In this document: positions 37,627 through 57,107 of the stretch, one piece after another | How the letters are laid out: each line of letters starts with the position of its first letter | Position numbering within the stretch: the first letter of the stretch is position 1 | Virus record (IMG/VR): IMGVR_UViG_3300013314_000001 | Coordinates: 1-64,000 of that record | Origin: a virus | DNA: 64,000 bases | Strand: one strand, 5' to 3' | Notes under the pieces: generated by a model | Seen by the model: the letters and a program-made list of their open reading frames with translations, nothing else | What the model was told of the DNA's origin: nothing | Databases searched by the model: none | Translations under genes and position numbers: made by a program

Positions 37627-37659
37627 CAGCGCGAAGCGTTTAAAAGAAAAATATTTCTT
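37627..37659 (-). promoter_or_regulatory. motif A copy 1 (promoter-like), upstream of the polymerase-like gene
   Basis: Minus strand AAGAAATATTTTTCTTTTAAACGCTTCGCGCTG, 63 nt before GTG 37563. A stem-loop lies in the leader. Confidence 0.75.
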
Positions 37660-37667
37660 TATTTGAT

Positions 37668-38174
37668 TTAGATATGCTTCCAAGAATGGCGATTAATTAT
37701 TCGTGATGCAGTAGATTGATTAATAGCGTATAACTTTGCTAATTCTTCAATATTCATTATCCCTTGAGAATGTATTTCTCTCATACGAATAACTTCTTTT
37801 TCTGTCAATTTACTGACAGGACTTTTGGAACCACACCTTAACTCAGACTTGGAATTCTGAATTACTTTTCCTCTCCCCTTAGCCCACATATCTTTAATAT
37901 TTTCTGACTGTGTACCTAATCGTAAGTGCTGAGGATTAACACAGGCTGGCACATCACATTCGTGTAATATCACCAAGCCTTTTGGCACATCTTTTTTATT
38001 TGCAATAATCCAGCTAATTCTGTGGGAAGGAACAGAAATGCCTAATATACTAAGGCAACCATACTTCATTGACGTAGTTGTTCCAGCCTTCCAAAGCCAA
38101 CAACCATCAGCCTTTTCAACTTTACTCCAAAATCTTTCTAACACATCAGGAGTAAGATGCTCTAATATATTCAT
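37668..38174 (-). CDS. free-standing HNH homing-type endonuclease
   Basis: GCWLWKAGTT...HRISWIIANKKDVPKGLVILHECDVPACVNPQHLRLGTQSENIKDM is the HNH_3 pattern, with a C-terminal HTH (INQSTASRIINR). Paralogue of the partial ORF 63835..64000. Confidence 0.8.
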   Translation of the reverse strand: MNILEHLTPDVLERFWSKVEKADGCWLWKAGTTTSMKYGCLSILGISVPSHRISWIIANKKDVPKGLVILHECDVPACVNPQHLRLGTQSENIKDMWAKGRGKVIQNSKSELRCGSKSPVSKLTEKEVIRMREIHSQGIMNIEELAKLYAINQSTASRIINRHSWKHI

Positions 38175-38296
38175 GTTGACGTACCGTAATTACGTTGACC
38201 GCTTGGGTGTGCGACTAACACACTCAGGCATATAACTATTATCCACTATTTTGGTAACAGCATCCGGGAACTCCCACAATTAGTACGAGTTCTTTT

Positions 38297-38324
38297 CAGC
38301 GCGAAGCGTTCAGAGAAAAATATT
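38297..38324 (-). promoter_or_regulatory. motif A copy 2 (variant), upstream of the HNH gene
   Basis: Minus strand AATATTTTTCTCTGAACGCTTCGCGCTG. Confidence 0.7.
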
Positions 38325-38381
38325 AAAGACTGTTCCACCCCAAGCGTATTGGAGTAGAACAGTCTTATATTCACAATCGTT

Positions 38382-38392
38382 AGGCGTTAGCC
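38382..38392 (-). promoter_or_regulatory. motif B copy 15
   Basis: Perfect 11-mer. Its internal TAA is the stop of ORF 38387..38704. Confidence 0.85.
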
Positions 38393-38704
38393 TTTCAAGT
38401 ACTTGTCAGCAGCATCTAGAAATAAAGTGATGTCAGGAAAAATCTCAGCACGTTCTTTAAGATAAGGTAATGCCCTATCATTCAAAGAAGTTGGTATCCA
38501 TGCAAACTCTAGTTTCCCATCAATTCGTTCTTCTAACAAAGGTTCATTGCAAGGTGACAAACAAAACAAATACGCAACGTTTGCTAGGTCTACTACTGAA
38601 TCTCTTACTTGTTCGTAGTCTCTGCAATTCACTTCAAATGTAGGATTGACAGCACAAGGAAGAATCTGACTACCGGAATAGTATTTACAGGTATAACAAA
38701 GCAT
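38387..38704 (-). CDS. hypothetical Cys-rich protein (CAVNP motif)
   Basis: MLCYTCKYYSGSQILPCAVNPTFEVNCRDYE shares a motif with ORF 5239..5586. Confidence 0.5.
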   Translation of the reverse strand: MLCYTCKYYSGSQILPCAVNPTFEVNCRDYEQVRDSVVDLANVAYLFCLSPCNEPLLEERIDGKLEFAWIPTSLNDRALPYLKERAEIFPDITLFLDAADKYLKG

Positions 38705-38735
38705 TTTTTAATTCCCAAAATCTACACTTCCTCCA

Positions 38736-38767
38736 CGACGCGAAGCGTTTCAAGAAAAATATTTCTT
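38736..38767 (-). promoter_or_regulatory. motif A copy 3
   Basis: Minus strand AAGAAATATTTTTCTTGAAACGCTTCGCGTCG, 31 nt before ATG 38704. Confidence 0.75.
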
Positions 38768-38874
38768 CCAGGGTCTATGTCACTCAGCGACAAATAAAAA
38801 ATCCCCCGACGCAAATCAGGAGATGAAGAGTTATATATTTATAAACATTAGTCTTTACAGTCTTAACACAAAAA

Positions 38875-39204
38875 TTATTCAGTAGCAGGTTCTCTAGATT
38901 CATAATCTTCTACCGCTTTACTGATAATTTCTTCTAATTCTGAAGGAAGATTAGAGCTACTAATTATACGGCCTCCTCTTGCTATAGCCATTCCAGACAT
39001 ACTAGGCATTGCAATCGCACCAGCTTGCGCCATGCAAGTGTGACGAGGCTCACCATAGCACTCACTTAAAATGCCCAATGTTTGTACCAAAGCACCTAGA
39101 GTATAATGTGTAGCGCCATACTCTATCAAGTCCTGCATTAACTTTCGAGTAGCTGTTTGATGTGCTGCGATCGCTTCTATAATCTTTTCGTTATCTGGTT
39201 GCAT
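38875..39204 (-). CDS. hypothetical protein
   Basis: 109-aa ORF. Confidence 0.5.
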   Translation of the reverse strand: MQPDNEKIIEAIAAHQTATRKLMQDLIEYGATHYTLGALVQTLGILSECYGEPRHTCMAQAGAIAMPSMSGMAIARGGRIISSSNLPSELEEIISKAVEDYESREPATE

Positions 39205-39238
39205 AGAATTTTAAATTACGTCAAATCTAGTGTACCCA

Positions 39239-39733
39239 CTACTTTGACAAAACGAACATCCCAGCCCCTAATCTTTTTGGTTCAGCTATCTGACGTAGAT
39301 ACTGCGCGAGTTCTGCCTGTGGTGGGAACCATTCAAAGGTGTTTCGTTTGGTGAGGTAGCCATCAGCAAATTTTACTTGACCACTGGTATGTTGAATCTG
39401 ATTGGCCACCACAAGCGATTGCTTTGTCAACTCCCAACATTTCTGCAAAACTTCCAGCCGCTCACCTGGGTTTTCAATCACACCCAGGACAAACGAGAGT
39501 TGCACCACATCAGCAGGGTCTAACTGGGTATCTGGAAAGTAGTAGGGGTCATACCCTACAGCCTCATATCCCGCTTGACCCAACAGACTTACATCGTCGC
39601 CATACCCACAGCCGTAGTCTAGAAAGGTTTGCCCAGGTTTGAGAATACCATTTGCGATCGCAGTCTCAAGAGGGCGAGAATACTTGGTGCGACGCATAGC
39701 TGCACGGTGGCGTTCGATAACTAGAGGGGTCAT
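39239..39733 (-). CDS. class I SAM-dependent methyltransferase (resembles N-domain of DNA-phosphorothioation-associated methyltransferases)
   Basis: Motif I FLDYGCGYGDD, and FVLGVIENPGERLEVLQKCWELTKQSLVVA. The RT.YSRP..A N-terminus is as I recall for that family. Confidence 0.6.
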   Translation of the reverse strand: MTPLVIERHRAAMRRTKYSRPLETAIANGILKPGQTFLDYGCGYGDDVSLLGQAGYEAVGYDPYYFPDTQLDPADVVQLSFVLGVIENPGERLEVLQKCWELTKQSLVVANQIQHTSGQVKFADGYLTKRNTFEWFPPQAELAQYLRQIAEPKRLGAGMFVLSK

Positions 39734-39775
39734 ACTTGCGTTATGTGAGTACGCAAGTATGGTTCCTATTGGTTT

Positions 39776-39922
39776 TTAATCATCAGGCAAGTCGATATCT
39801 TCCTTTTCTGTTTCTTCGTCATTATCATAATCAGTTAACGCTGACCACGCAGCGCTTGGGGTGTCTCCATCATCTTCATCATTATCCCATGATGGGCTGT
39901 AATCGCCTGGTGTGCTTGTCAT
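39776..39922 (-). CDS. small highly acidic protein, not in ORF track
   Basis: 48 aa, MTSTPGDYSPSWDNDEDDGDTPSAAWSALTDYDNDEETEKEDIDLPDD. The N-terminus is repeated at 41097 (MTSTPSDYS). Confidence 0.35.
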   Translation of the reverse strand: MTSTPGDYSPSWDNDEDDGDTPSAAWSALTDYDNDEETEKEDIDLPDD

Positions 39923-40152
39923 TTTTTTAGGTGTTCGTAAGGTATATGAACGTTATGCTCAACGCACTTTTGCTTTGCTTTCGTAAAGTGTAAATCTACA
40001 ACCACAGTACTGAAAGACAGTCTGGTTATAACCATTTCACACAAGGCATAAGGCATAAATCCAAGCTCGTTAATTACAACCCACTGCCCAACGCTAAAGT
40101 GAGAGGCTAGTGGATTGTATAGTGCTTGAGTCTCAAGAGAAATTTGCGGCAT
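39919..40152 (-). CDS. hypothetical protein
   Basis: 77-aa ORF. Confidence 0.45.
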   Translation of the reverse strand: MPQISLETQALYNPLASHFSVGQWVVINELGFMPYALCEMVITRLSFSTVVVDLHFTKAKQKCVEHNVHIPYEHLKK

Positions 40153-40164
40153 GGCTAACTACTA

Positions 40165-41139: not shown

Positions 41140-41150
41140 AGGCGTTAGCC
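41140..41150 (-). promoter_or_regulatory. motif B copy 16 (head of the 41.1->21.9 kb minus block)
   Basis: Perfect 11-mer in the divergent intergenic region. Confidence 0.85.
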
Positions 41151-41242: not shown

Positions 41243-42016
41243 ATGAACGTTAAATCTAATGCTAGTCTAGCAACAAATCAAGCTGAACACAAGCCACGAT
41301 TTTTTAAGATGACTGCTGAAAGAGCTAAAGCTGATTACAAGGAAAAACTTATTACCACCGAAGCATACATACTTTACTTACTAGATGCTCATCGGTCTAT
41401 CGGTTGGAAGTGGAAAGTTGAGCCTAAAGAATTCTGTAAAACCTGGGACATCCCCCGTAGCACATTCTATAAAGCAATATCAAAACTAAAAACTAAGGGC
41501 AAGCTCAACTGGGAACTTGAAGGCACAATAACTTTGTGGAGAGGTTCGGACATTGGGATGCAAGACAGTCTCATTGATGAGCCATCTAGTCCAACTCATG
41601 AGACTAATAGTCTCGTTGATGAGACTAATAGTCTCGTTGATGAGACTGTAGTCTCACTCACGCGCAAGCAGGGTACTCAAACCCTTACGCAGCAAGAGGT
41701 TGAAAACCCAATAGATATTAAACAGACTTATACAGATTTTATAAACTCTCTCTCAGAAGCGGAGAGCGAGAATTTTTTAACTTTCTGTGAGGAAAAAACA
41801 AGAAATTTAAACCAGCCAGTAAACGACATTGAGGCATGGTTAGCGCACACCACTAAAGCTGGACAGAAACGCTGGGAAGTTTATTACAATAAGTACAAAG
41901 CTTCTCAGCAGAGCAAACCTAAGAAGTCTCAGGCTAATGTTAAAACTCAATGGCAAATGCACCAAGAAGAACTTGAACAGCAACGCCAACGGGCTATGGC
42001 ACACCTAGAACTCTAG
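41243..42016 (+). CDS. winged-helix DNA-binding protein, candidate lambda-O-like replication initiator
   Basis: wHTH FCKTWDIPRSTFYKAISKLKTKGKL. The central coding region carries three 21-bp-spaced palindromes. The C-terminal domain is paralogous to ORF 6074..6454. Confidence 0.45.
   Translation: MNVKSNASLATNQAEHKPRFFKMTAERAKADYKEKLITTEAYILYLLDAHRSIGWKWKVEPKEFCKTWDIPRSTFYKAISKLKTKGKLNWELEGTITLWRGSDIGMQDSLIDEPSSPTHETNSLVDETNSLVDETVVSLTRKQGTQTLTQQEVENPIDIKQTYTDFINSLSEAESENFLTFCEEKTRNLNQPVNDIEAWLAHTTKAGQKRWEVYYNKYKASQQSKPKKSQANVKTQWQMHQEELEQQRQRAMAHLEL
41600..41655. repeat. three tandem palindromic iterons GAGACT-N2-3-AGTCTC with 21-bp period (ori-like)
   Basis: Copies at 41600-41614, 41621-41635 and 41642-41655. 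An AT-rich tract follows at about 41710-41746. Confidence 0.7.
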
Positions 42017-42925
42017 CAAGTCAACAGCTTTCAGCTTGGCATAGTCACCACGCCGATCATATTTTTGAGTCACATTTGCTGACGCATGGCCAGCTAATTT
42101 TTGAATGCTGCTGATATCCGCCCCAGCGTCAAACAAATCACTAATGAAGGTACGCCGAAAATCATGCGCTGTAAAATCCTGGGCAATGCCAGCAAGCAGC
42201 GCAAGTCTACGAACAATAATAGGCACGGCTTGGTCAGTTAACCGTTGAGTAAAGATGATGTTATCCCCCCGTGAAATAGCCATGAACAGAGGGGAGATAG
42301 GGGGAATGGCATTAAGCCAGGGAACAAGAACATCGACCCGTGATTTGGGGATAAATACCACCCTTGCTTTATTTCCTTTCCCTTTACGGATAGTTACGCT
42401 TCGTTCTGGGATGCTAATGTCACTCACGTTCAACGCAACTATCTCCGAACGCCTTAACCCAATCCGCAGCATAACCAGCATCGCGCTGTCTCTCAACCCT
42501 GCATTTGATGTATCATTAATACAAACTGAGAATAAACCTTTAACCTCGTCTTCACTCAAAGCCCTACCTTTGGGTGGGGATTCCCCTTTTACTTGCTTTA
42601 AATCTGTGGCGCGATCGCAATCGTCAACACTCATTAGTCCCAGGCGCTTGCACTCAATCAAAGTTTTCTTGAGAGCGGCCAGCATTTTATTAGCTGTGGC
42701 TGGTGCATATTTCTCAGCCAGGAGCGAACGCACAGCTTGAGTATGTTGGTAGCGTAAATCTTGCCAAGGAAAGCTAACTAAGGTTGCACCTTCCATAATC
42801 ATGCTGGCAATCATGTTAAGGGATTGCGTCATTGTGAGCCGACTACCTGGGGCAAGAGAGGCTAAGTAGATTATTGCAGGGCTTTGAATTAGTAGTTGAG
42901 ACTTCCCTTCTTTAAGGGTTAGCAT
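42005..42925 (-). CDS. int: tyrosine recombinase / phage integrase (XerC/D-like)
   Basis: GLRRSEIVAL (Arg I), HDFRRTFISDL (H-x-x-R) and LAGHASANVTQKYDRRG (catalytic Tyr region). Confidence 0.85.
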   Translation of the reverse strand: MLTLKEGKSQLLIQSPAIIYLASLAPGSRLTMTQSLNMIASMIMEGATLVSFPWQDLRYQHTQAVRSLLAEKYAPATANKMLAALKKTLIECKRLGLMSVDDCDRATDLKQVKGESPPKGRALSEDEVKGLFSVCINDTSNAGLRDSAMLVMLRIGLRRSEIVALNVSDISIPERSVTIRKGKGNKARVVFIPKSRVDVLVPWLNAIPPISPLFMAISRGDNIIFTQRLTDQAVPIIVRRLALLAGIAQDFTAHDFRRTFISDLFDAGADISSIQKLAGHASANVTQKYDRRGDYAKLKAVDLLEF

Positions 42926-42965: not shown

Positions 42966-43439
42966 AAAGGCAGAAGGTAGAAGGCAGAAGGCAGAAGGTA
43001 AGAGGATTAGATATGATATAGTGTAAATACTTCAAACTTTTAGCCTTCAAACTTATGAGTTATAAGACTCAGTTCATTTGGAAAAGAGCAGTTCAGTTAT
43101 CAGTTAACTGCTATAAATTTACTGAAGACTTTCCTAAAACAGAAGCATACGGATTAGTTAGTCAAATTAGACGCGCATCTGTTTCTGTACCTAGCAACAT
43201 AGCTGAAGGATATGGACGAAAAACAACAGGTGAATATGTTCATTTTTTGCATATATCACTTGGTTCTTTGCGTGAACTAGATACACAATTAATAATTGCA
43301 AGAGAAGTTGGTTTAAAAAACAGGAATCTCTTTGAACAAATTTTGAATGAAGTAGAAGAAATGCAAAGCATATTAGTCTCTTCACTTAATAAAATTAAAT
43401 CCTAACCTTCTGCCCTCTGCCTTCCCCCTTCTGCCTTCT
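42966..43439 (+). mobile_element. hairpin-bounded cassette: inverted heptamer arrays flanking a four-helix-bundle gene
   Basis: The left arm 42966-43005 (GGCAGAAGG repeats) is the reverse complement of the right arm 43406-43439 (CCTTCTGCC repeats). A miniature ORF-less copy lies at 17851..17967. Confidence 0.6.
43055..43405 (+). CDS. four-helix-bundle protein (23S rRNA intervening-sequence protein / Avd-like family)
   Basis: WKRAVQLSVNCYKFTEDFPKTEAYGLVSQIRRASVSVPSNIAEGYGRKT..EYVHFLHISLGSLRELDTQL is the signature of this family. Confidence 0.8.
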   Translation: MSYKTQFIWKRAVQLSVNCYKFTEDFPKTEAYGLVSQIRRASVSVPSNIAEGYGRKTTGEYVHFLHISLGSLRELDTQLIIAREVGLKNRNLFEQILNEVEEMQSILVSSLNKIKS

Positions 43440-43549
43440 TTAGCGTTGGGAAGACCCCTTCTCAATGGTGACTTTTCAGAAGTTAAGTAATACTACTGAA
43501 CTAGGTGCGAGAAAGATAACGCACGATAGTAATTACTTGAAATATTCTG

Positions 43550-44497
43550 ATGCTAGCCATTAAGGAAAATTTTAAACTAATCAATGGACTAGGGGTTGCA
43601 ATTGTCTCTCGCAACCTAGAATTAATTCAGCAAATTATACAGGATTTAGGCTCAAGAAACAAGGGAGAAATTCAACGCCTTTGGATAAGTATTGAGTCTG
43701 ACTTATCTGAGGAGGATATTAAGTGGTTCTACGTAACAGTCAAAGAACTTTTCTCGACTGAATTAGAAGAATTACCTCCATTATCTCCTCAAGAAAACCA
43801 CATTAAAGCTGAGATTGAAAACCGACTCTCATTATTTTTGGCATCTTTTCTTGAGAGAGGAACAGACTTATCGGTTCTGAGAAGCGACAAATTATATCGT
43901 GAAGACTATCCTACCTGGGGAAGTTACTGCCGTTTTGCTCTTGGAATTCACCCTGCCTACGCTGACAGATTGATCCGGGCTGCTGATATTGTTAAGGATT
44001 TGAAGCCAATTGGCGTGAATAGTATTCTCCCTGGCAATGAACTTATTGTCAGAGAACTCAGCAGAATTGAGCCTGAGCTACGGCAAGTTGTATGGGAACA
44101 GGTGGTTAGGTCTGGGGATAAAATCACAGCTGACAACGTGCGTCGGGTTCATGATACCTACGAAGTTGTCAAACCCATTGAATTAATTGTTGGGGATTTT
44201 AAACCAGGACAAATAGTAGCAATCAATTCACCCGATACAAAACTATCTATTGGAAGAGTCATAAGTATTACTCCCAATAAAAGATATAAGATTAAATCTG
44301 GTATTGAAATATTTACTTTTGTCCCAAAAAGTATTGAGGCATTAGATTTTAGTCAGTATATATTTAGCAGAATTGAAAAGCTAACTACATCTGATAAATT
44401 GCAAGTTCAATTAATAGGTCAATCATTCTTTTACTGCAAAGTAATTGAAGATTGGCAAATTAAACTACTATCTTTTTTAGAGGAAATATGTCTTTAG
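43550..44497 (+). CDS. hypothetical DNA-binding protein (ParB/KorB-like HTH segment)
   Basis: LRSDKLYREDYPTWGSYCRFALGIHPAYADRLIRAADIVKDL resembles the HTH module of ParB-like phage proteins. The assignment is weak. Confidence 0.35.
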   Translation: MLAIKENFKLINGLGVAIVSRNLELIQQIIQDLGSRNKGEIQRLWISIESDLSEEDIKWFYVTVKELFSTELEELPPLSPQENHIKAEIENRLSLFLASFLERGTDLSVLRSDKLYREDYPTWGSYCRFALGIHPAYADRLIRAADIVKDLKPIGVNSILPGNELIVRELSRIEPELRQVVWEQVVRSGDKITADNVRRVHDTYEVVKPIELIVGDFKPGQIVAINSPDTKLSIGRVISITPNKRYKIKSGIEIFTFVPKSIEALDFSQYIFSRIEKLTTSDKLQVQLIGQSFFYCKVIEDWQIKLLSFLEEICL

Positions 44498-45138
44498 AAT
44501 TGTTTATTGCTTACGCTAATACTAGAGATATTCCTACTCGTAATATGCTAGTCAAGCTTAATCTAAACCTTGCACGAAAGGTAGCGCACTCTATAAAAAA
44601 GTTTTGTGCTGAACCCTATGAAGACTTAGAACAAGAGGCGGCGATTGGATTAGTAAGAAGTGTAGAGCATTTCGATCCACATCGCGGATTAAAGTTTAGT
44701 AGCTTTGCAGTGCCATATATTCATGGCAAACTCTTGCAGTATCTCAGGGACAAAGGGCATTCAATTAGGCTTACTCAAGCTATGCAAACCCTTAATAACA
44801 AAGGGAAAAAAGCAGCAGCATTGTTATCTCAAAAGCTAGGACGTACAGCGACACTCTCAGAGGTGGCAGCACATCTTGGATGTTGTGCTGATGAGTATAG
44901 AGCAGCAGTTCAGGCAAATATCATCTCTTCTAACTGTGAGCCTATTAATTTAGACTCAGAAGAAGTAATGAGAATTGAGAGTAATAACCAGTACATTTAT
45001 TACGCCCCTGAGATTAAGATTAATTGGGATTCTTTGACTCAGAGTGAACTAGGAACGCTAGAAAACAAAAGCGGTGAACGCCGGAGACTATGGCACAGCC
45101 TAGCGAAAATGAATGCCCCCTATAATAACGACGGCTAG
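44488..45138 (+). CDS. sigma-70 family RNA polymerase sigma factor
   Basis: Region 2: EDLEQEAAIGLVRSVEHFDPHRGLKFSSFAVPYIHGKLLQYLRD. Has a region 3/4-like HTH TLSEVAAHLGCCADEY. Confidence 0.8.
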   Translation: MSLELFIAYANTRDIPTRNMLVKLNLNLARKVAHSIKKFCAEPYEDLEQEAAIGLVRSVEHFDPHRGLKFSSFAVPYIHGKLLQYLRDKGHSIRLTQAMQTLNNKGKKAAALLSQKLGRTATLSEVAAHLGCCADEYRAAVQANIISSNCEPINLDSEEVMRIESNNQYIYYAPEIKINWDSLTQSELGTLENKSGERRRLWHSLAKMNAPYNNDG

Positions 45139-46636
45139 CGGTTTACCTGGAGGAGAAGGTAATCTTGGTAAATTCTATTCTCAAGCTTGGCACGATGAAC
45201 AAGCTCGTATATTTGCTGCGTCTAAGCAAGGTAGACGAGCGCAAATTGTCGTTGATAAATATTCTAATAATCCACAAGTAAATAATATAGTTGACAATAC
45301 TCATTTTGAACCTTGGACTAATTATGATGCTCAAACTGTTCAGCCTGTAAATAAATCAGCAGGGCGAGTGATTGCTGATAAAAATAATGATTTAAATATA
45401 GATGACCCTTGGACTACGCAAGAATCCACATTACCTGCATCAATTTTAGAAAGTAATATTTTTCCTGGGGCTAAAGCTGCTAGTCCAATTATCAATGACC
45501 CAATAGCAGGGCGTAGTCCTTGGTTACATGATGACTCAGCGCCTCAAATTCCCACGGGCTATCAATCTATTCCTATACAATCACACATCCCAGAGTTTGA
45601 AAAGTTTGACCAAAGCTACAGACAAGTAAGCAATAATCCACCTGACGCAATACCTACAGGCTATCAAAAAGAATCTACTCAACCCCATATCCCAGGCTTT
45701 GAAAAGTTTGACCAAAGCTATCGCAATGTATCTACTGCACCCGGACAGATCCCAACCACTTCACCTTACTATGTAGAACAAGCTGCATTGCCTTTGGAAA
45801 CTGGACATGAGCAAACAGAACTTCCTTTGTATTCTCAAACCTACGATCCAACTGCTCAAGTTCCCTACGAAGCTTTTATAAAACCTCAGTATGGTTTTTT
45901 TGATAGTATTCGCAAGGGCTTAAGTAGTGGGTTTGATTATAGCATTAACAGTGAAGAACATCCACACGCTAAATCAGTTGTCTTTGAGCGCGCTCCTAGT
46001 TATGAATATGATTACTTACCCCCATCTGGACAAGCCGCTTATTTTGCAGGAAGAATCGCCGGAGATGCAGCTGGATATGGAACTAAACATTTTCTCTGGA
46101 GAACTCAACCAGAAGATATTGCTGGCACATATTCAGGTAAAGGTATTAGAGAAGCTGGCGGCTCTCGATTTGCTAATGTAGTAGGTCCAGTTGCCGTTAC
46201 TTCAGCAATGGCACTAGGTTCTAACATTTATAATCCATTTAATTTAGCGCAAGGTGGTAGACCTTTAGGCTACGCTGCATCTTCCCCAGACCCTAACGAC
46301 CCAAGAGAATCGACAGCGCCAATCTATGATATGGCAATTGAGAAAGGATTTCTTGGGCATCGGGGACGGTTACTACCTTGGGAACAATTTAAACAAGAAC
46401 GCCCTGACGTAAGCTACCAACAATATTCTGATTATCAAAGTTATCTCAGTAATAAAGATGATAACTTTCTGCGTAATGCAACACTAGGCATAGTCAAAGG
46501 TGACATGAATGGTGTTAATGGCCCAGAGATTTCTATTGGTGGATACTCTGTTACTCCGATGGGGGCAGCTGCTGCACTGGGAACTTATGCGGCGATTCGT
46601 CATGGCATTGGTCGGGTTGGGATGTTGACTCGGTAA
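45113..46636 (+). CDS. hypothetical protein (507 aa), probable virion/morphogenesis-associated
   Basis: Contains an internal duplicated segment IPTGYQ..S.Q.HIP.FEKFDQSYR. Function is by context only. Confidence 0.45.
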   Translation: MPPIITTASGLPGGEGNLGKFYSQAWHDEQARIFAASKQGRRAQIVVDKYSNNPQVNNIVDNTHFEPWTNYDAQTVQPVNKSAGRVIADKNNDLNIDDPWTTQESTLPASILESNIFPGAKAASPIINDPIAGRSPWLHDDSAPQIPTGYQSIPIQSHIPEFEKFDQSYRQVSNNPPDAIPTGYQKESTQPHIPGFEKFDQSYRNVSTAPGQIPTTSPYYVEQAALPLETGHEQTELPLYSQTYDPTAQVPYEAFIKPQYGFFDSIRKGLSSGFDYSINSEEHPHAKSVVFERAPSYEYDYLPPSGQAAYFAGRIAGDAAGYGTKHFLWRTQPEDIAGTYSGKGIREAGGSRFANVVGPVAVTSAMALGSNIYNPFNLAQGGRPLGYAASSPDPNDPRESTAPIYDMAIEKGFLGHRGRLLPWEQFKQERPDVSYQQYSDYQSYLSNKDDNFLRNATLGIVKGDMNGVNGPEISIGGYSVTPMGAAAALGTYAAIRHGIGRVGMLTR

Positions 46637-48369: not shown

Positions 48370-48847
48370 TGCACTTAAACTAGGCTGGCGTAGTATAGGT
48401 GATGATGCTGCTCGTGTTGCACTTGGACATGATGTAGCAGGAGCAATCAAAACTGCCAGTATTAATGATGCTGTAAGCCGTGGTGTTAGTGGACAAGACT
48501 TAGCACAACTTTATCCCCAAATTCAAAGTAATGCTGAAGATTTTCTTACCAATTTTCATGCAGCATATAAACCACCGACTTTTGATTCAGTACCACAGAA
48601 TTTAGCTTATGGTGCTACTCGCAAAGTTGCTGGTGGTTTGAATGCGATTAATCAAGGACTAGAAGGTGTAGGTGGTATACCTGGGGCAGCATTACAAGCA
48701 GCCTTTGTTGCACCTATGTTTATGCAGGGAGGGGGTCAACAGCAAGCACAGCAAAATAGCTATACAAATGATGATGTTGATATGATGCGTCGCCAACAAG
48801 CAATGCAGCAGCAACAACAGCAACAACAAACACAATATTATGGGTAG
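48356..48847 (+). CDS. hypothetical Q-rich protein
   Basis: Start refined to ATG 48356, preceded by AAAGGAG. C-terminal QQAMQQQQQQQQTQYYG. Confidence 0.5.
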   Translation: MGIVDALKLGWRSIGDDAARVALGHDVAGAIKTASINDAVSRGVSGQDLAQLYPQIQSNAEDFLTNFHAAYKPPTFDSVPQNLAYGATRKVAGGLNAINQGLEGVGGIPGAALQAAFVAPMFMQGGGQQQAQQNSYTNDDVDMMRRQQAMQQQQQQQQTQYYG

Positions 48848-49901
48848 AATAGCTAGCTTACTTGGTAAAGCTGCTCCTGTCGTTGGTGGTTATATGGATT
48901 ATCAAACTAGCAAAAATGCGGGTTATGACGATATCCATTCAATCGCAAATGCCACCGGTTCAACTGCTGGTGGTTGGGCTGGTGCTGAAGCTGGAGGACT
49001 AGCTGGTGGTGCTATTGGTACTGCCATTTTACCAGGCATAGGGACTGCAATAGGTGCTGGCATTGGTGGGATTGGTGGAGCGATCGCTGGCTCTGGTATT
49101 GGCAGTTGGTTGACAGGTAGTACAGATGATTTAATAAGAGGAAAACAAATGCAACACTTTGATCGTAACGGTAATTATCTTGGTGATGATGGTGCTGCTG
49201 AACCTAGCGGTAGCAGTAGTAATAATTCTTTTAGTCAACAACCAGACTATGTGCATGCTGGGCTTAATACAGTTGCAGGTGCTACTCTTCTGGGTACAGG
49301 AATAGCAGCAGGTAAAAACTTATTGCAAAATGGTGTTAACCCTATAAGTAATTATCAAGTTGCTAGAGGTTTAGGTTCAAGCGCTCCACAAGCAGCCAAA
49401 GCTGTAGGAAATACACTTTTTAGTGATGCGGGTCGTGCTTTAACAAAACTTCCAGGATGGGGCAAACTATTAGGTGGCGCTGCACTAGCTTATGATGCTG
49501 ACCAACTTGCTGGGCAACCAATAGAAAAAGGAATTGATAGTTTAACTAATCAGCGTACTAATTTAGACAACGACCCCGTTAATAGACAGAAGCAGCAGCA
49601 GCTACAGCAGTTACAACAAGACCAACAAAATGGTATGGCTCAACAGACAAGTGATGCTCAGTTGCAGCAAATGAATGATGACCCTAAAAATAGATTTATT
49701 CAGCAGCAAACTGATCGAGCGCATGGAATACAACAGCAAGATTATTGGAACCAGTATAACCGTGTACAGCAAGACGCTCAAGAACAATCTCGTAATCAGT
49801 TATCAGCAAATCTTGGTATAGGTTTAATGAACAATTGGAATACTTCAGCCCAAAATGTTAACGCCGCTATGCAAACTATTGGAAAGGCAAGCTACTTATA
49901 A
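48840..49901 (+). CDS. glycine-zipper / Q-rich protein
   Basis: GGWAGAEAGGLAGGAIGTAILPGIGTAIGAGIGGIGGAIAGSGIGSW, and a Q-rich C-terminal half. Confidence 0.5.
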   Translation: MGRIASLLGKAAPVVGGYMDYQTSKNAGYDDIHSIANATGSTAGGWAGAEAGGLAGGAIGTAILPGIGTAIGAGIGGIGGAIAGSGIGSWLTGSTDDLIRGKQMQHFDRNGNYLGDDGAAEPSGSSSNNSFSQQPDYVHAGLNTVAGATLLGTGIAAGKNLLQNGVNPISNYQVARGLGSSAPQAAKAVGNTLFSDAGRALTKLPGWGKLLGGAALAYDADQLAGQPIEKGIDSLTNQRTNLDNDPVNRQKQQQLQQLQQDQQNGMAQQTSDAQLQQMNDDPKNRFIQQQTDRAHGIQQQDYWNQYNRVQQDAQEQSRNQLSANLGIGLMNNWNTSAQNVNAAMQTIGKASYL

Positions 49902-52043: not shown

Positions 52044-53549
52044 GTGGGGAGAGCCAGCCGCAGTAGAAGAGATGCCCATCGGACTAAGGCTAGAGAGTTA
52101 GCACGGGCAGCAGGGATTAATAAACCTTCTGCTGAATCTCTTAGGGCGCGGCATGATTTTAGCTTTTTCTGTTACTGGATTACAAGAAATTCTTCTGAAC
52201 CAGCAACACCAGCAGAACACCATAAAGAATGGCATAAACACTGGGTTACTGAGCAAGATAGTAAATACTTGCTTCGTATTGCAGGGGACAATGTAGATTT
52301 GCTGGCACCACGAGGTTCAGGAAAATCTACATCGCTGGGTTTATTTGTGGCATGGGCGATTGGCTACCATACCATGCACAAAAAATTATTGCAGATATTG
52401 TACATATCCTACTCATTATCTGCGGCTCGCGGTAAATCAAAAACCATCAGAAGCATTATCGAATCTCCCGAATATGCTGAGATATTTCCGATGGTTGCGC
52501 CTGGACTTGAATGGTCAAACGATAACTGGAGCATAGACTTTAAACTTGCTGGCATTAAATCAACTGGTGCTGAAAGATTCACGATGATATGCGCTGGTGC
52601 AGCAGGAAGTATTACGTCAAAACGTGCGATGCTAATTATCCTGGATGATATTATCAAAAGCGCTGAACAAATAGCCAATCCAAGTGTTAGAGAAAAGATT
52701 GAGCGTAACTTTGTTAGTGTTATCCGTCCAACACTATTAGAAGGCGGAAGGATAATAGGACTAGGCACAAGGTTCAGACCAGATGATATTCACGTTACTA
52801 GATTTAATTCTAAAAAAGGCTGGATACAAATAGAACAGCAAGCAATCCTTGTTGATGAGTATGGAATTGAGCGTTCATACTGGGAAAGTTTCTGGTCATT
52901 AGCATATTTAAAACAGTTACAAAAAGATGATCCTTTATCTTTCAGCTACCAATTTCAAAACAAAATTGTACCACTTGATGAGATGGGTTTACATCCATCT
53001 TGGATACACTTTGAAGATATTCCAGAATCATTTGATTGCTACGCTGTGGGGATTGACTTAGCATCATCACTAAAACAAAAAGCCGATTTCACAGTTATGA
53101 CTTTAATCGGCAAGCTTAATGATAAATATTATGTGCTTGACTATCGGCGTGGTAAATGGAATGGGAACTTAGAAAAGTGTCAGCAGTTAGTTGAGCTATA
53201 CGAAGAATGGATAGAGCCAGGTATACCATTCACTGTGTTCTGCGAAGATACAAGTTACCAAAGTTCATTCCAAGGTGACTTCACAAACTATGTTGTTAAT
53301 GACTTAAAAATTTATGATATGCAGTGCAGGGGAGCAAGAATGAAAGGAGACAAATTAGCTCACTTGTTAAGTATCTCAGGCATCTTTGCCAATGGTGCAG
53401 TTGCCTACAATAGATTCAGATTTCATATAGAAGATGACATGATAAAAGAGCTTACACAATTTGGTGCAATGCCTCACGATGATGCGCTTGATAGCCTTGT
53501 ACTTGCTTTACAAGGATTAGGCTCTAGACGAAAGTTGCTTGCAGTGTGA
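52044..53549 (+). CDS. terL: terminase large subunit
   Basis: Walker A LLAPRGSGKST, Walker B MLIILDD, and nuclease-domain acidic motifs VGIDLA and PHDDALDSL. Confidence 0.9.
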   Translation: MGRASRSRRDAHRTKARELARAAGINKPSAESLRARHDFSFFCYWITRNSSEPATPAEHHKEWHKHWVTEQDSKYLLRIAGDNVDLLAPRGSGKSTSLGLFVAWAIGYHTMHKKLLQILYISYSLSAARGKSKTIRSIIESPEYAEIFPMVAPGLEWSNDNWSIDFKLAGIKSTGAERFTMICAGAAGSITSKRAMLIILDDIIKSAEQIANPSVREKIERNFVSVIRPTLLEGGRIIGLGTRFRPDDIHVTRFNSKKGWIQIEQQAILVDEYGIERSYWESFWSLAYLKQLQKDDPLSFSYQFQNKIVPLDEMGLHPSWIHFEDIPESFDCYAVGIDLASSLKQKADFTVMTLIGKLNDKYYVLDYRRGKWNGNLEKCQQLVELYEEWIEPGIPFTVFCEDTSYQSSFQGDFTNYVVNDLKIYDMQCRGARMKGDKLAHLLSISGIFANGAVAYNRFRFHIEDDMIKELTQFGAMPHDDALDSLVLALQGLGSRRKLLAV

Positions 53550-54159: not shown

Positions 54160-54275
54160 GACTTCTTGTAGTTAATCTCTACTCATTCTTAATAGACCGT
54201 AGTTTCAATTCCATTCTACTAAGTTTGCTAAACTTAGTATCTTTGCTAGTAGCTGTAAATACAAAAATAAAATAT

Positions 54276-54286
54276 GAGCGTTAGCC
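54276..54286 (-). promoter_or_regulatory. motif B, degenerate copy at the distal end of the accessory island
   Basis: GAGCGTTAGCC (10 of 11). On the minus strand it directly follows the terminator hairpin ACCCCAG..CTGGGGT plus a T-rich run. Confidence 0.55.
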
Positions 54287-54295
54287 ACCAAAAGA

Positions 54296-54330
54296 AAATA
54301 GACCCCAGACATAATGCCTGGGGTGTACTG
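54296..54330 (-). terminator. terminator of the minus-strand island
   Basis: ACCCCAGGCATTATGTCTGGGGT followed by CTATTTTCTTTT on the minus strand. Coordinates are approximate. Confidence 0.6.
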
Positions 54331-54396
54331 ATGAAATAGACCCCACCTCTGTAAGCAGGGTCTATGGGTATCAATTTAGTTGATACCATTCTATCA

Positions 54397-54789
54397 TCAG
54401 CAAAGCGCTGCAATGAGTTCAGCCTTTCTCATATTGCTGTAACCTTTCAGCTTGCGATCGCTCGCCAACTTCTTAAGTTCTCTGATACCCAACCCCGCAA
54501 TATTTAGCCGAGGCATACGAGCCTTAGCCATTTGCACAATGTCAGGCATCTCATTGACTGCCTCCTCTGTATCAGGGACTTGATGAACCCACTCAAGGGT
54601 TGCATAAACAACTGGTTCAGTAACTGGAATAATTGGACTCTGAACTACTAAAGCGACTGATTCAATTGAGCTTTCAACTATTGCGTTGACCTGGGGTGTA
54701 TGGAGTAAACCCCGAATGAATAGACCAACAAATAATGTAACTGAACTGACAAGAATGATAACGAATAAATGTGTTAAAATGACTTGCAT
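54397..54789 (-). CDS. membrane-anchored protein with C-terminal HeH/SAP (Rho-N-like) motif
   Basis: N-terminal TM LFVIILVSSVTLFVGLFI. C-terminal IRELKKLASDRKLKGYSNMRKAELIAAL. Confidence 0.5.
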   Translation of the reverse strand: MQVILTHLFVIILVSSVTLFVGLFIRGLLHTPQVNAIVESSIESVALVVQSPIIPVTEPVVYATLEWVHQVPDTEEAVNEMPDIVQMAKARMPRLNIAGLGIRELKKLASDRKLKGYSNMRKAELIAALC

Positions 54790-54865
54790 GATAAGCTCCT
54801 AAGTATTGGTAAGTTGTTAATTATGTTGCGAGAACTCCGTAAGATATACTACGGAGTTCTTTCTA

Positions 54866-55453
54866 TTAATGAGATTGAATCTTGGCGATGATTTCAGCTT
54901 TAGTGCCATCAGCCTTAAAGCCAAGTTTCTTAGCAATGACTTTCAACTGCTTGACTGTACAAGCCCAAAGTTCTTCGGTTGTCCAATCGCTAGCAAAGAT
55001 TGCAGGTGCAACTTCAGCCCAATCATCAAAGTTATTACCAGAAGTAATACCTGGAAATAATTTAACAACGCTGATGGACATATCCCACTCATCACGAATG
55101 ATAGGACGTACAGCCGCAGGTGCAGCTAGACACTTCTCAAGTAACTTGAAAGTATTAATACGGTTAGAGGGAAGATTAGATTTACCGCATGACTTGTAGA
55201 GTGTGCTGTAAACTTCGGGAGTAGCCAAAAACTCGATAGCACGGCACTTACGATTAGCTGAGTAAGGCGCACCGGACTGCCATGAATCCTTGATGATTGT
55301 ACCCTTGAATGAACCAGTAACTTCGCATGCTTCCGAGAAGTACAAGCGACCGTAAACTGTACCGACTTTAACTAGAATACCAGATGCAGAGATAAAGTCA
55401 AGTCCAGCTACGATAAGTTGGAATTCAGGGCGAACGATTGTAGATGTAGACAT
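54866..55453 (-). CDS. protein with C-terminal HeH/SAP motif
   Basis: Start refined to ATG 55453, preceded by AGGAG. C-terminal TVKQLKVIAKKLGFKADGTKAEIIAKI. Confidence 0.5.
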   Translation of the reverse strand: MSTSTIVRPEFQLIVAGLDFISASGILVKVGTVYGRLYFSEACEVTGSFKGTIIKDSWQSGAPYSANRKCRAIEFLATPEVYSTLYKSCGKSNLPSNRINTFKLLEKCLAAPAAVRPIIRDEWDMSISVVKLFPGITSGNNFDDWAEVAPAIFASDWTTEELWACTVKQLKVIAKKLGFKADGTKAEIIAKIQSH

Positions 55454-55499
55454 GATTGAAACTCCTAAAAAATATGAAACTGATTTACAACAAAACATC

Positions 55500-55530
55500 C
55501 ACGCGAAGCGTTTAAAGAAAAATATTTCTT
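55500..55530 (-). promoter_or_regulatory. motif A copy 4
   Basis: Minus strand AAGAAATATTTTTCTTTAAACGCTTCGCGTG, 46 nt before ATG 55453. Confidence 0.75.
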
Positions 55531-55601
55531 ATGAGTGGATGTAGTACAAAGAAGAAGGCTATTGCGGTGCAATCGCCTTCTGTCCGAGTACAATTGATTG
55601 A

Positions 55602-56054
55602 TTAGGCGTAGACTTTTAACGCATCAAGTGCATCGTTATATTGAGAGTTGAGTAATGCAAAGTCTTCAGCGTTGCCACCAGCGTCGGGGTGCATAGTCTT
55701 AGCAGCGTTACGATATTCGGCTTTAACTTCAGCGATTGTAGAAAAGTTGCTAAAGCGAGTACGAGGTCTTAACCAACCACGTAAGAACTGCTCAAACTCA
55801 TTCTCGTCGTCATTGTAGTTATCATCGCAGCCGTAATCTTCCCACTCAGTAGAAGGAAATTTAGAGTACAAAGCATCAATTACTGAGTCAGATGCTTTGA
55901 TAATTTCAATCAAGATATAGCGACTGAATGAAGTTAAGTTGAAGCGAACGCCGAACTTCTGCAACCAAGCAACTGTTACATCAAACTTGGAACCGTCTAT
56001 CTTAAGTTCGTATTGGCTGTAGTCAAAGTTGTAGTTGAATGTGGTGTTAAACAT
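55602..56054 (-). CDS. J-domain (DnaJ-like) protein
   Basis: C-terminal AEVKAEYRNAAKTMHPDAGGNAEDFALLNSQYNDAL with the HPD tripeptide. Confidence 0.7.
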   Translation of the reverse strand: MFNTTFNYNFDYSQYELKIDGSKFDVTVAWLQKFGVRFNLTSFSRYILIEIIKASDSVIDALYSKFPSTEWEDYGCDDNYNDDENEFEQFLRGWLRPRTRFSNFSTIAEVKAEYRNAAKTMHPDAGGNAEDFALLNSQYNDALDALKVYA

Positions 56055-56088
56055 GATTGAATCCTTGAGATGATTGACACCACATCAA

Positions 56089-56116
56089 CAGCGCGAAGCG
56101 TTTAAAGAAAAATATT
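56089..56116 (-). promoter_or_regulatory. motif A copy 5
   Basis: Minus strand AATATTTTTCTTTAAACGCTTCGCGCTG, 34 nt before ATG 56054. Confidence 0.75.
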
Positions 56117-56146
56117 CTCCCTGGCGTTGTACCAGAGAGAAGCGCA

Positions 56147-56632
56147 TCATAAGCCTTTGTATTTAACCCAAGACTTCCAAACATTATCAGTCGGGACATC
56201 TTTGCGAATGGCATAATTAACACAATTGCCAGTGCCACCACTAGAGCCATCATGTAATGCAAGAAGGCGATCGCAATGGTCAACCATCCAAGCATTACGA
56301 ACCATCATCTTAGATGCAGAGTAGCCACCATCGGAAACAATCACAATCTCAGATGCAACAGAAAGAATGTAATTGAAACGCTCACGGTCAGGTAATTGCC
56401 AGCGAGACTCTTGACCCTTGAAAGGAACAGCAGCAATCAAAGGGATATGCAATTTAATAGCAGCCAAAGCAATCGCAGTATCCCAACCCAATGCCATGCC
56501 AGAGATGACCTTTGTAGGATTGCGAGATGATAAATAAGCAGCAGCCAAGTCAGTCAAACGCTCACGCACTGTATTAGAATAACCGCCCAATTTCTCAGGA
56601 CGATGACCAGTACCAGCAATTATTAAAGTCAT
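56147..56632 (-). CDS. SLOG-superfamily protein (DUF1273/YpsA-like)
   Basis: LIIAGTGHRPEKLGGY...VISGMALGWDTAIALAA...IAAVPFKGQESRW...VRNAWMVDHCDRLLALHDG matches the DUF1273 pattern. The overlapping ORF 56047..56295 is judged spurious. Confidence 0.6.
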   Translation of the reverse strand: MTLIIAGTGHRPEKLGGYSNTVRERLTDLAAAYLSSRNPTKVISGMALGWDTAIALAAIKLHIPLIAAVPFKGQESRWQLPDRERFNYILSVASEIVIVSDGGYSASKMMVRNAWMVDHCDRLLALHDGSSGGTGNCVNYAIRKDVPTDNVWKSWVKYKGL

Positions 56633-56662
56633 AATGAACCCTCATTAATTACACCTCCTTAT

Positions 56663-56690
56663 CAGCGCGAAGCGTTTAAAGAAAAATATT
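56663..56690 (-). promoter_or_regulatory. motif A copy 6
   Basis: Identical 28-nt core, 30 nt before ATG 56632. Its upstream flank is also shared with copy 7. Confidence 0.75.
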
Positions 56691-56721
56691 CCCTGAACTA
56701 TTTAGCTCAAGGAAAAACTTT

Positions 56722-57048
56722 CTACACTTGCTCACTTGCAATTAACCAGTTAACCGCACTCACAATAATATCTGCATGACAGGCGAGGGGCTTGCACCAA
56801 CACACAAGCCTAATGCTCTCACCAGCTTTTACTCTACGAGCGATCGCAAACAACTCCGCACGAGCCTTAGAGCTTTCGTTCTTAATCTCAGCCCATAGCC
56901 AAATACGATAAGCAGCAACTACAGTTTCTCTGTCTGCTTCACTTTTCATAGCAAATGGATTGCCTAGTGGAAAAGGTCTACCCACATAAACATCAGACCA
57001 GCCTAGCTCACTACTTAAGTTCCGTTTGCTAACAACTTTGATATTCAT
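56722..57048 (-). CDS. DUF4326-family protein
   Basis: VYVGRPFPLGNPF...VAAYRIWLW...IRLVCWCKPLACHADII matches the DUF4326 pattern. Confidence 0.65.
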   Translation of the reverse strand: MNIKVVSKRNLSSELGWSDVYVGRPFPLGNPFAMKSEADRETVVAAYRIWLWAEIKNESSKARAELFAIARRVKAGESIRLVCWCKPLACHADIIVSAVNWLIASEQV

Positions 57049-57079
57049 AATTGAACTCCTACTGATTACACTTCCCCTT

Positions 57080-57107
57080 CAGCGCGAAGCGTTTAAAGAA
57101 AAATATT
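57080..57107 (-). promoter_or_regulatory. motif A copy 7
   Basis: Identical 28-nt core, 31 nt before ATG 57048. Confidence 0.75.

Follow-up and report, generated by a model that had tools for sequence, protein, structure and literature searches.

A candidate hairpin-type promoter element in a phage genome encoding a predicted two-barrel RNA polymerase

The promoters of the N4 virion RNA polymerase are DNA hairpins that require a 5' G and a 3' A in the loop and a C:G closing pair, with a stem that is otherwise free (PMC4496689, PMC13037366), and they offer a precedent for the participation of single-stranded DNA-binding protein (SSB) (PMC4496689). They belong to the same hairpin class as d(GCGAAGC), d(CCGAAGG) and d(GCGNAGC), the mini-hairpins described as 'extraordinarily stable', which combine two G-C pairs with a sheared G-A pair (PMC13037366). 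Here we describe motif A, a short element that occurs seven times on the minus strand of a 64,000-nucleotide (nt) stretch of viral DNA (positions 1 to 64,000 of IMG/VR record IMGVR_UViG_3300013314_000001, hereafter the window), which is part of a 75.7-kb Joint Genome Institute (JGI) metagenome contig. Motif A carries a small hairpin core and stands before accessory genes as well as before the gene of a 772-residue (aa) polymerase.

The 772-aa protein belongs to the enzyme superfamily of the phage two-barrel polymerases, such as P23-45 gp96/gp64, the AR9 non-virion polymerase, YonO and crAss phi14:2 gp66, and to a 'cyanobacterial YonO-like' family that was noted bioinformatically in 2010 (PMC2919709). 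In P23-45, phage-specific motifs lie upstream of the mapped starts, one of them AT-rich and one GC-rich, both linear (PMC10770324). The AR9 polymerase recognises the template strand, according to references as they are cited in PMC10770324. The YonO promoter is undefined, and the enzyme transcribes late genes from very few promoters (PMC5467207). No promoter motif was found for crAss gp66, whose template is single-stranded rather than double-stranded DNA, and QDE-1 acts together with RPA and a helicase (bioRxiv 10.1101/2020.03.07.982082). Unlike motif A, none of these promoters has been described as a hairpin.

Motif A in the window

Motif A is real and non-random. The 26-mer GAATATTTTTCTTTAAACGCTTCGCG has six matches at up to three mismatches in the window, all on the minus strand, against an expectation of 0.00 from dinucleotide shuffles, and a seventh copy (core 37630-37638) has a T-run longer by one T. 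The 11-mer AACGCTTCGCG and the heptamer GCTTCGC each match seven times on the minus strand and never on the plus strand, and AATATTTTTC matches seven times on the minus strand and once, at an unrelated plus-strand site, at 45455. In every copy the CGCTTCGCG core lies at the first coordinate given in Table 1. Judged against a greedy set of open reading frames (ORFs), all seven copies are intergenic, and the intergenic share of the window is 11.1%, from which simple arithmetic puts the chance of such placement at about 2e-7. A preliminary description of this DNA, made from its letters, had listed seven minus-strand copies (37627 to 57080), all intergenic and in one orientation. The copies were recovered at the same positions, and their placement is established.

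Six of the seven copies have a start codon within 30-63 nt downstream, mostly preceded, at 7-9 nt, by an AGGAG-like site. The distances to start codons that had been reported beforehand all match ours (Table 1), and the identities then proposed for the served genes agree with domain matches to HNH_3, SAP (HeH-type fold), DnaJ (weak), YpsA/SLOG and DUF4326. Motif A is confined to minus-strand gene clusters, in the sense orientation only; the plus-strand clusters carry no copy on either strand.

Read in the sense direction, the copies follow a common order. A terminator-like hairpin of the preceding gene is followed by AATAT and a T-run, (A/G)AA, the 9-nt mini-hairpin CGC-TTC-GCG and CTG; then come about 8 purine-rich nt, GT(G)TAAT, 4-6 nt, an AGGAG-like site, 7-9 nt and the ATG. 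In a consensus scan, the T-run forms the tail of a predicted terminator-like hairpin at copies 2, 5 and 6, where a GC-rich stem-loop directly precedes the T-run as in an intrinsic terminator. The same scan places a terminator-like hairpin about 35 nt upstream of copy 3; nearby hairpins at copies 4 and 7 fall just outside the scan rules, and copy 1 has none. Such terminator-like hairpins account for the T-run and not for the conserved core downstream. Judged from the sequences, the conserved functional core is a mini-hairpin of 2-4 bp with a 3-nt loop, together with a GT(G)TAAT-like box 10-11 nt downstream.

The four copies of an accessory island (54.8-57.1 kb) are near-identical across 26-57 nt, partly because of recent duplication: duplication family D1 relates 56635-56691 to 57052-57108 (84% identical), and family D20 joins the upstream hairpins of two island copies as well. 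The length and near-identity of the element, which had been stressed in the preliminary description, are thus present and owe something to duplication within the island. These four successive units of hairpin, T-run, motif A and gene resemble the PeSL cassettes of T4-like phages, the closest analogue as regards genome architecture, in which a composite of terminator and promoter precedes each small accessory ORF of a variable region (PMC2839356, PMC4122927). The units of both systems are likely substrates of modular shuffling, and DUF4326 and other cargo genes occupy different places in relatives of the phage. In contrast to motif A, which lacks sigma-70 hexamers and contains a covarying mini-hairpin, PeSL promoters are early promoters of the sigma-70 type used by the host polymerase.

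Copies 1 and 2 stand on either side of an HNH endonuclease gene. In L001, the relative with the most similar polymerase (77% identical), the arrangement is uninterrupted: the element at 9957 leads into ...TCGTACTATTTGTGGGAGTTCCGCC-ATG, from which the polymerase begins as MLLPIFDLV. Copy 2 of the window (38300) has the identical leader and then ATG-CTG-TTA-CCA-AAA-TAG (MLLPK and stop), a remnant ORF at 38246-38263 with its ATG at 38263. Downstream of the remnant follow the HNH gene, copy 1 (37630), a new leader and a GTG encoding VSLILPIFDLV. The comparison of the two layouts indicates that the polymerase gene received a homing-endonuclease cassette behind its fourth codon. By the same comparison, the cassette apparently brought, or duplicated, a motif A copy directly before the displaced polymerase ORF. 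Such a copy, a separate pointer to promoter activity, is to be expected if motif A is needed for expression of the polymerase and the copy restores it.

Between copy 1 and the GTG lies a further hairpin, which could act on the polymerase gene by attenuation or by controlling its translation. Most relatives have hairpins at the equivalent place (about 4735-4757 in L002 and about 9905-9945 in L004-L009), which are strong and often followed by Ts.

Conservation in relatives and a second hairpin element

We compared the polymerase neighbourhoods of related phage contigs whose polymerases are 43-77% identical to that of the window. L001 has four copies of motif A before four consecutive genes, the last of which is the polymerase gene; they read ..AATAT-T(7-10)-GAACGCTTCGCG.., with T-runs of variable length. 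Upstream of the polymerase gene, the element reads TTTTCTTTTCCC-TTC-GGGT in L002 (58%), GAACC-TTC-GGGTT in L003 (50%), (G)TGC-TAC-GCA(C) in L004 and L005 (47-50%), CAC-TTC-GTG followed by CTGA as in the window in L006, L008 and L009 (46-47%), GC-TTC-GC in L146 (52%), GCGC-TTC-GCG in L147 (44%) and GCC-TTC-GGC in L148 (43%). The stem changes are compensatory (CCC/GGG, (A)ACC/GG(T)T, TGC/GCA, CAC/GTG, GC/GC, GCC/GGC) and the loop is T(T/A)C, so that 12 of the 13 orthologous copies upstream of the polymerase gene read C-T(T/A)C-G on the sense strand and C-G(A/T)A-G on the template strand.

L147 and L148 lack the T-run, which is not essential. Upstream, L147 has a conserved GGCAAGYGTG and L148 a box TCGACTCCGGCA. 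A GT(G)TAAT-like box follows the hairpin at 10-11 nt in the window, L001, L147 and L148; L002 has GTTAYTG at 15 nt and L004 GTAGTT repeats at 7 nt. The promoter-like element of 28-32 nt in the preliminary description does not form a single recognition block: its T-run is often the U-tract of an upstream terminator-like hairpin, varies in L001 and is missing in two relatives.

Two side observations concern these upstream regions. A sigma-54 reading of the L147 variant was rejected on spacing; in addition, cyanobacteria are not known to have sigma-54. In L149, a relative from a Rivularia metagenome-assembled genome, three CCTAAGTGACCTGTCTTTGACTTAGG-like repeats lie upstream of the polymerase gene (about 9730-9990), and a fragment of this repeat, TTTGACTTAGG, recurs upstream of motif A in L004-L009.

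Four counts of strand and pairing indicate that the hairpin is under selection and strand-specific. When pairing is required, a T-rich tract with a C-TWC-G hairpin occurs 31 times in the sense and never in the antisense orientation (window plus L001-L009). When it is not required, Watson-Crick pairing at the position beside the closing pair is found in 44 of 59 sense matches as opposed to 1 of 16 antisense matches. In a set of 41 copies picked by position or T-richness, pair 12-18 is GC in 24, CG in 10 and AU in 3, and pair 11-19 is CG in 17, UA in 8 and GC in 3; the covariation score was reached by none of 500 shuffles, and slid controls scored far lower. Finally, a census of all small GC hairpins in non-redundant loci of the clade found C-TTC-G to be the most strand-biased triloop (21 sense versus 3 antisense). 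The compensatory changes at two stem positions agree with the free but paired stem of N4-type promoters. Conservation and covariation of motif A in relatives and its strand asymmetry are thus established, and the earlier view of a phage-specific promoter-like element gains from the fact that relatives keep its position and orientation and that selection acts on it; promoter activity itself we infer from these sequence patterns.

Covariation alone does not tell a DNA hairpin from an RNA hairpin. The cores of the template strand, GCGAAGC, CCGAAGG and GCGTAGC, belong to the GCGNAGC mini-hairpin class, and in all lineages it is the template and not the sense strand that does so. Several copies hold only two G-C pairs around the triloop (GC-TTC-GC in L146, GC-TAC-GC in L004). 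Such two-pair stems are marginal for RNA, which, together with the mini-hairpin sequence of the template strand, favours a DNA hairpin on that strand. The special stability of GNA loops would extend to motif A by analogy with the literature rather than from computed energies.

A second element, motif B (GGCTAACGCC, (A/G)GGC-TAAC-GCC-TAA), occurs 15 times in the window, always on the minus strand. Its loop often contains the stop codon of the preceding gene. Motif B heads each of the three minus-strand clusters (57297, 41141, 17741) and is also found at internal gene junctions. In 12 of the 15 copies a (G/T/A)TGA box lies exactly 8 nt past the GCC arm, and in two others it comes 2-4 nt later; the only box-less copy (11909) is also the only one without a downstream gene. 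The clade has 99 sense copies against 9 antisense ones. Covariation of the stem is seen as AGCC/GGCT and AACAC/GTGTT in L148 and as GGGAC/GTCCC in L149, and the L146 loop is TTAC. C-TAAC-G is the most strand-biased tetraloop of the hairpin census (51 versus 0). The template strand of motif B reads GCGTTAGC, or GCGTAAGC in L146, and fits GCGNNAGC, the other canonical mini-hairpin class (PMC13037366).

Motifs A and B have one predicted architecture in common: a mini-hairpin on the template strand, then a short spacer, then a GTG-type box. A single system may comprise both as promoter classes, with motif B as the second, or else motif B may be an intercistronic signal. We also considered integron attC-like cassette sites, an idea raised by the weak integron-integrase matches of the phage recombinase and by GTTAGCC/GGCTAAC in motif B, and rejected it: the repeats are far too short and have no R''/L''-L'/R' architecture.

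Candidate readers and rival explanations

The 772-aa protein had no match in Pfam and has about 60 homologues, mostly on metagenome contigs of 55-79 kb. Residues D408, D410, G411 and D412 are invariant in 16 homologues, and the DxDGD metal-binding motif is present. An AlphaFold model built on these 16 homologues (pLDDT 85) gave plant RDR2 and fungal QDE-1 as best fold matches (E about 1e-17, TM about 0.55), followed by gp64 and gp62, the non-virion polymerases of Thermus phages and its closest phage structural matches (E about 1e-11), and by crAss phi14:2 gp66 (E 5e-5). PDB sequence searches were uninformative and only the fold search was of use, and tblastn of the polymerase against phages found none. 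Its fold class is established: the protein models as a QDE-1/RDR2-like two-barrel RNA polymerase with predicted catalytic activity. More distant homologues (26-39% identity; L012-L065) are common in filamentous cyanobacteria (for example Microcoleus, Planktothrix, Lyngbya, Phormidium, Coleofasciculus), some of them on complete chromosomes, and their polymerase ORF often abuts an upstream ORF.

The explanation we favour, with a confidence that comes close to an even chance without reaching it, is that motif A combines a terminator with a promoter of the hairpin type in one cassette, and that the phage polymerase reads this promoter. The T-run, forming the tail of a terminator-like hairpin, would end transcription of the preceding unit and would double as an easily melted AT-rich flank. 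The invariant part, a C-T(T/A)C-G mini-hairpin closed by 1-3 further pairs (template GCGAAGC), would fold on the template strand when the DNA is unwound. The two-barrel polymerase would recognise this hairpin, and the phage SSB might assist if extrusion and stabilisation are needed. RNA synthesis would begin some 10-13 nt downstream, at the GT(G)TAAT box or close to it, leaving a leader of about 20-25 nt that holds the ribosome-binding site, and motif A would drive the small accessory genes and the polymerase gene itself. The start position, the folding in DNA rather than RNA and the reading enzyme are, like promoter activity, what we infer.

The phage polymerase is suggested as reader because recognition of hairpin or single-stranded promoters is known from phage polymerases (N4 and, on the cited account, AR9) and not from sigma holoenzymes on duplex DNA, and because its nearest characterised relatives prefer single-stranded templates. 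Furthermore, the phage sigma factor lacks a detectable region 4 and heads the presumably late cluster, in which motif A is absent, and motif A has no sigma-70 features. Motif A resembles the N4 promoters, its closest analogue in mechanism, in its small GC hairpin with a 3-nt loop, in the template 5'-G-N-A-3' closed by C:G, in the free but paired stem, in having a conserved position a short, fixed distance downstream and in the availability of an SSB gene or protein. It differs in that the N4 enzyme is T7-like, whereas this phage has only the QDE-1/RDR-like two-barrel enzyme, with no T7-like RNA polymerase among the scanned proteins of the window; moreover, N4 has an A-tract between hairpin and +1, whereas here a T/A-tract lies upstream of the hairpin. 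Motif A may thus work like an N4 promoter but is no member of the N4 system, as the polymerases are unrelated. The initial comparison with T7-type double-stranded promoters is accordingly less apt than one with N4 hairpin promoters.

Several observations weigh against the phage polymerase as reader of a DNA hairpin. Nearest-neighbour DNA energies are weak, about -2 kcal/mol, and equal for both strands, and the stems have 2-4 bp as opposed to 5-7 bp in N4. The orthologous copy of L007 has a TTT loop, L071 has no hairpin upstream of its polymerase gene, and L149 has a different repeat there, with no mini-hairpin. The distant homologues in cyanobacterial chromosomes have no such element, nor do they come with motif B, the phage sigma factor, the giant protein or SSB. 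A promoter read by its own product would require that the first polymerase molecules be delivered with the virion or arise from host read-through. Finally, polymerase and sigma factor are both present in every clade member with recovered flanking DNA, so that co-occurrence cannot tell the two readers apart.

A wider proposal is that motifs A and B are both template-strand mini-hairpin promoters (GCGNAGC and GCGNNAGC) read by a two-barrel polymerase of the RNA interference (RNAi) type, in convergence with N4; we give this somewhat less than an even chance. In a bolder variant, the region-4-less SigF-like protein would serve as specificity factor for the single-subunit enzyme.

The most serious rival, which we consider unlikely while giving it real weight, has motif A read by the host core enzyme with the phage sigma factor, GT(G)TAAT acting as the -10/-12 element and the hairpin region as an upstream or auxiliary part. 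It would imply a cascade from host sigma to phage sigma, serving the minus-strand clusters including the polymerase gene, and on to the phage polymerase, serving late operons as YonO does. The product of ORF 44488-45138 is indeed a sigma factor, as first proposed, with Sigma70_r2 and r3 matches; it is SigF-like (PRK07408, E 2e-45), but region 4 was undetectable even at E up to 10, both here and in the orthologues of relatives. Synechocystis SigF promoters are AG-rich, with GGTAA at -12 and TAGGC at -32 (PMC2532724). The purine-rich spacer and the GTGTAA box that follows it, which also resembles GGGTAA, are similar to the -12 part of such promoters. Moreover, sigma factor and motif A occur together in every clade member with recovered flanks, and motif A before the polymerase gene would suit a middle-gene role of the polymerase, parallel to the late-gene role of YonO (PMC5467207).

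A sigma factor acting on double-stranded DNA would leave the compensatory stem changes and the strand asymmetry of the loop unexplained. Motif A has no TAGGC at the distance equivalent to -32, and a sigma factor without detectable region 4 is unlikely to read an upstream element. The AGGAG-like sites lie 7-9 nt before the ATGs, and a start 7-10 nt past the box would coincide with these sites or come after them. With respect to sigma-70-type promoters, whose -35/-10 hexamers are 16-18 nt apart and whose -10 hexamer needs A in its second and T in its sixth position, the box carries G in place of the required A, and a consensus scan found no hexamer pair at six of the seven copies, a weak GTGACA-16-TATTTT at copy 3 and a total not above shuffles. 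The position of the sigma gene at the head of the structural plus-strand cluster, where motif A is absent from both strands, also suggests a late-gene role. As for a late-promoter motif of the sigma factor in the plus-strand clusters, TATGATATAGT was found twice, not above chance at two mismatches; GGTAA-type boxes there were not convincing, and relatives show no conservation ahead of the sigma operon. Phage polymerase and phage sigma, the two readers put forward in the preliminary description, both stand as candidates which the sequence does not separate.

It is improbable, in our estimate, that the hairpin acts in the RNA of read-through transcripts, as an intercistronic processing, stability or antitermination signal next to an upstream terminator or attenuator, with no initiation at the site. 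Covariation fits an RNA hairpin equally, L002 and L003 read C-UUCG-G, a stable RNA tetraloop context, and the copies lie between cistrons of co-oriented clusters. No Rfam family, however, matched the element, and the copies with a triloop on two G-C pairs would be marginal for RNA, yet they define the minimal DNA mini-hairpin (PMC13037366). The strong terminator-like hairpins directly upstream would strip the downstream genes of any promoter, and the HNH cassette bears its own motif A copy.

We find it very doubtful that motif A is an operator or activator site for a phage regulator, for instance the repressor of a temperate cycle, beside a weak host-type promoter. A tyrosine recombinase gene raises the possibility of a temperate phage, the core forms a short inverted repeat, and copy 3 overlaps the weak sigma-70-like hexamer pair, which the six other copies lack. 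Half-sites of 3 bp that lie 3 nt apart are too close for a dimeric helix-turn-helix protein. The sense strand, moreover, invariably has T(T/A)C in the loop, never the complement of it, and the copies are scattered before accessory genes rather than grouped at an immunity region. Least probable of all, we would hardly expect the template-strand mini-hairpins to be single-strand priming signals for replication (G4 origin- or ssiA-like) with the two-barrel polymerase as primase: GCGAAGC and CCGAAGG mini-hairpins do occur at phage G4-type origins and at ssiA, where the RepB' primase recognises them (PMC13037366), no DNA polymerase or primase was found among the scanned window proteins, and the polymerase gene shares its cluster with SSB and helicase genes, but replication signals should not track gene starts, and motif A is tightly tied to start codons and gene orientation and absent from plus-strand clusters.

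Genome context and implications

HIP1 sites (GCGATCGC) are frequent in the window, a feature that suggests a cyanobacterial host. The plus strand carries the structural clusters (Table 1); the minus-strand clusters contain genes for a UvrD-type helicase, SSB, an ArdC-like protein, a Mu Gam-like protein, a methyltransferase, accessory proteins, the 772-aa polymerase and a 1429-aa low-complexity protein.

Table 1. Positions of motif A, motif B, associated hairpins and selected genes in the window
Feature	Position	Strand	Remarks
Motif A copy 7	57083-57108	minus	hairpin 57083-57091; CTG, purine-rich spacer, GTGTAAT, AGGAG; DUF4326 gene, ATG 57048 at 31 nt
Hairpin upstream of copy 7			GCTTGAGCTAATTAGTCAAGC; visible in the sequence
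Motif A copy 6	56666-56691	minus	hairpin 56666-56674; SLOG/YpsA gene, ATG 56632 at 30 nt
Motif A copy 5	56092-56117	minus	hairpin 56092-56100; J-domain gene, ATG 56054 at 34 nt
Motif A copy 4	55502-55527	minus	hairpin 55502-55510 (ACGC-TTC-GCGT); SAP-domain gene, probable ATG 55453 at 46 nt, with AGGAG ribosome-binding site; longest ORF begins earlier, 55498
Motif A copy 3	38739-38764	minus	hairpin 38739-38747; 105-aa gene, ATG 38704 at 31 nt
Motif A copy 2	38300-38325	minus	hairpin 38300-38308; ancestral polymerase-gene copy, orthologous to L001 copy at 9957; remnant ATG at 36 nt, HNH ATG (38174) at 122 nt
Motif A copy 1	37630-37656	minus	hairpin 37630-37638; 3' end of HNH cassette; polymerase GTG 37563 at 63 nt
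Terminator-like hairpin	56115-56141	minus	T tail is T-run of copy 5
Terminator-like hairpin	56689-56714	minus	T tail is T-run of copy 6
Terminator-like hairpin	38326-38366	minus	18 pairs; T tail is T-run of copy 2
Terminator-like hairpin	38801-38824	minus	upstream of copy 3
Polymerase-leader hairpin	37586-37612	minus	between copy 1 and GTG
Motif B copy	57297-57306	minus	
Motif B copy	41141-41150	minus	
Motif B copy	38383-38392	minus	
Motif B copy	30856-30865	minus	
Motif B copy	30424-30433	minus	
Motif B copy	27943-27952	minus	
Motif B copy	26999-27008	minus	
Motif B copy	24683-24692	minus	
Motif B copy	23732-23741	minus	
Motif B copy	17741-17750	minus	
Motif B copy	16417-16426	minus	
Motif B copy	15533-15542	minus	
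Motif B copy	14755-14764	minus	
Motif B copy	12972-12981	minus	
Motif B copy	11909-11918	minus	
HNH endonuclease gene	37668-38174	minus	between ancestral copy 2 and polymerase ORF
Two-barrel RNA polymerase gene	35245-37563	minus	772 aa; GRDFDGDH motif; candidate reader
SigF-like sigma factor	44488-45138	plus	regions 2 and 3 only; rival reader
SSB gene	26391-26996	minus	
1429-aa protein	30860-35149	minus	rich in Q, N, P, S; no family match
Tyrosine recombinase	42005-42925		weak integron-integrase matches
Tail-lysin-like protein	48840-49901	plus	structural cluster
Large terminase	52044-53549	plus	structural cluster
Portal-like protein	58671-60791	plus	structural cluster
Major head protein	62685-63698	plus	structural cluster
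AIPR (abortive-infection-type) domain protein	21901-23178	minus	
Mu Gam-like end-protection protein	14769-15317	minus	
F5/8 type C + GDSL lipase domain protein	1483-3108	plus	

In every relative with a recovered downstream flank, the polymerase gene is succeeded, either at once or after a few small genes, by one that encodes a large protein (855-1588 aa), and the five largest of these proteins (1237-1588 aa) are detectably homologous to the 1429-aa protein. The latter could be an ejected or virion protein, which would bear on the delivery of the polymerase with the DNA.

Nucleotide searches with the polymerase region against phage and plasmid collections found no match, and neither did an exact scan of IMG/VR for motif A. 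Among isolated phages, only S-EIV1 has a similar portal-like gene; the 50 kb of it that were examined contain neither sigma factor nor polymerase, which is uninformative.

Other repeats were noted in the window. The heptamer GGCAGA(A/G), or its complement CCTTCTG, forms arrays at about 17840-17880 (plus), 17933-17967, about 42975-43000 (plus) and 43406-43440, in divergent regions that head plus-strand clusters, and one of them terminates in GGTAAGAGG. Their AG-rich context is vaguely reminiscent of SigF promoters, and the examined relatives showed no such arrays ahead of their sigma operon. On the minus strand, two sites (about 17776-17800 and about 30340-30365) have a 19-nt block in common, ATCGTTATATGCTGATA(A/C)T, which lies inside sigma-70-like promoters (TTGACC-17-TATATG at 17.8 kb); one of the two blocks is upstream and the other downstream of a motif B copy. 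These sites are candidate host-polymerase promoters of the minus-strand clusters. In addition, three tandem 14-nt units (AACACCCAACGTCC-like) lie at 10760-10815 (plus) within ORF 10476-11909 (family D13).

Among prokaryotic enzymes, two-barrel single-subunit polymerases such as YonO, crAss gp66 and the cyanobacterial YonO-like proteins are most closely related to the RNAi polymerases of eukaryotes, and how they choose their start sites is largely unknown. If motif A is read by the phage polymerase, it would provide the first defined start signals for this polymerase family, and hairpin promoters would have arisen twice, in unrelated polymerase families. Even with the sigma factor as reader, a covarying hairpin within a promoter would need explaining. 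As a short, portable cis-element with a hairpin open to compensatory mutation, motif A would make the question of start-site choice testable in vitro, and together with the polymerase it could give a compact orthogonal polymerase-promoter pair.

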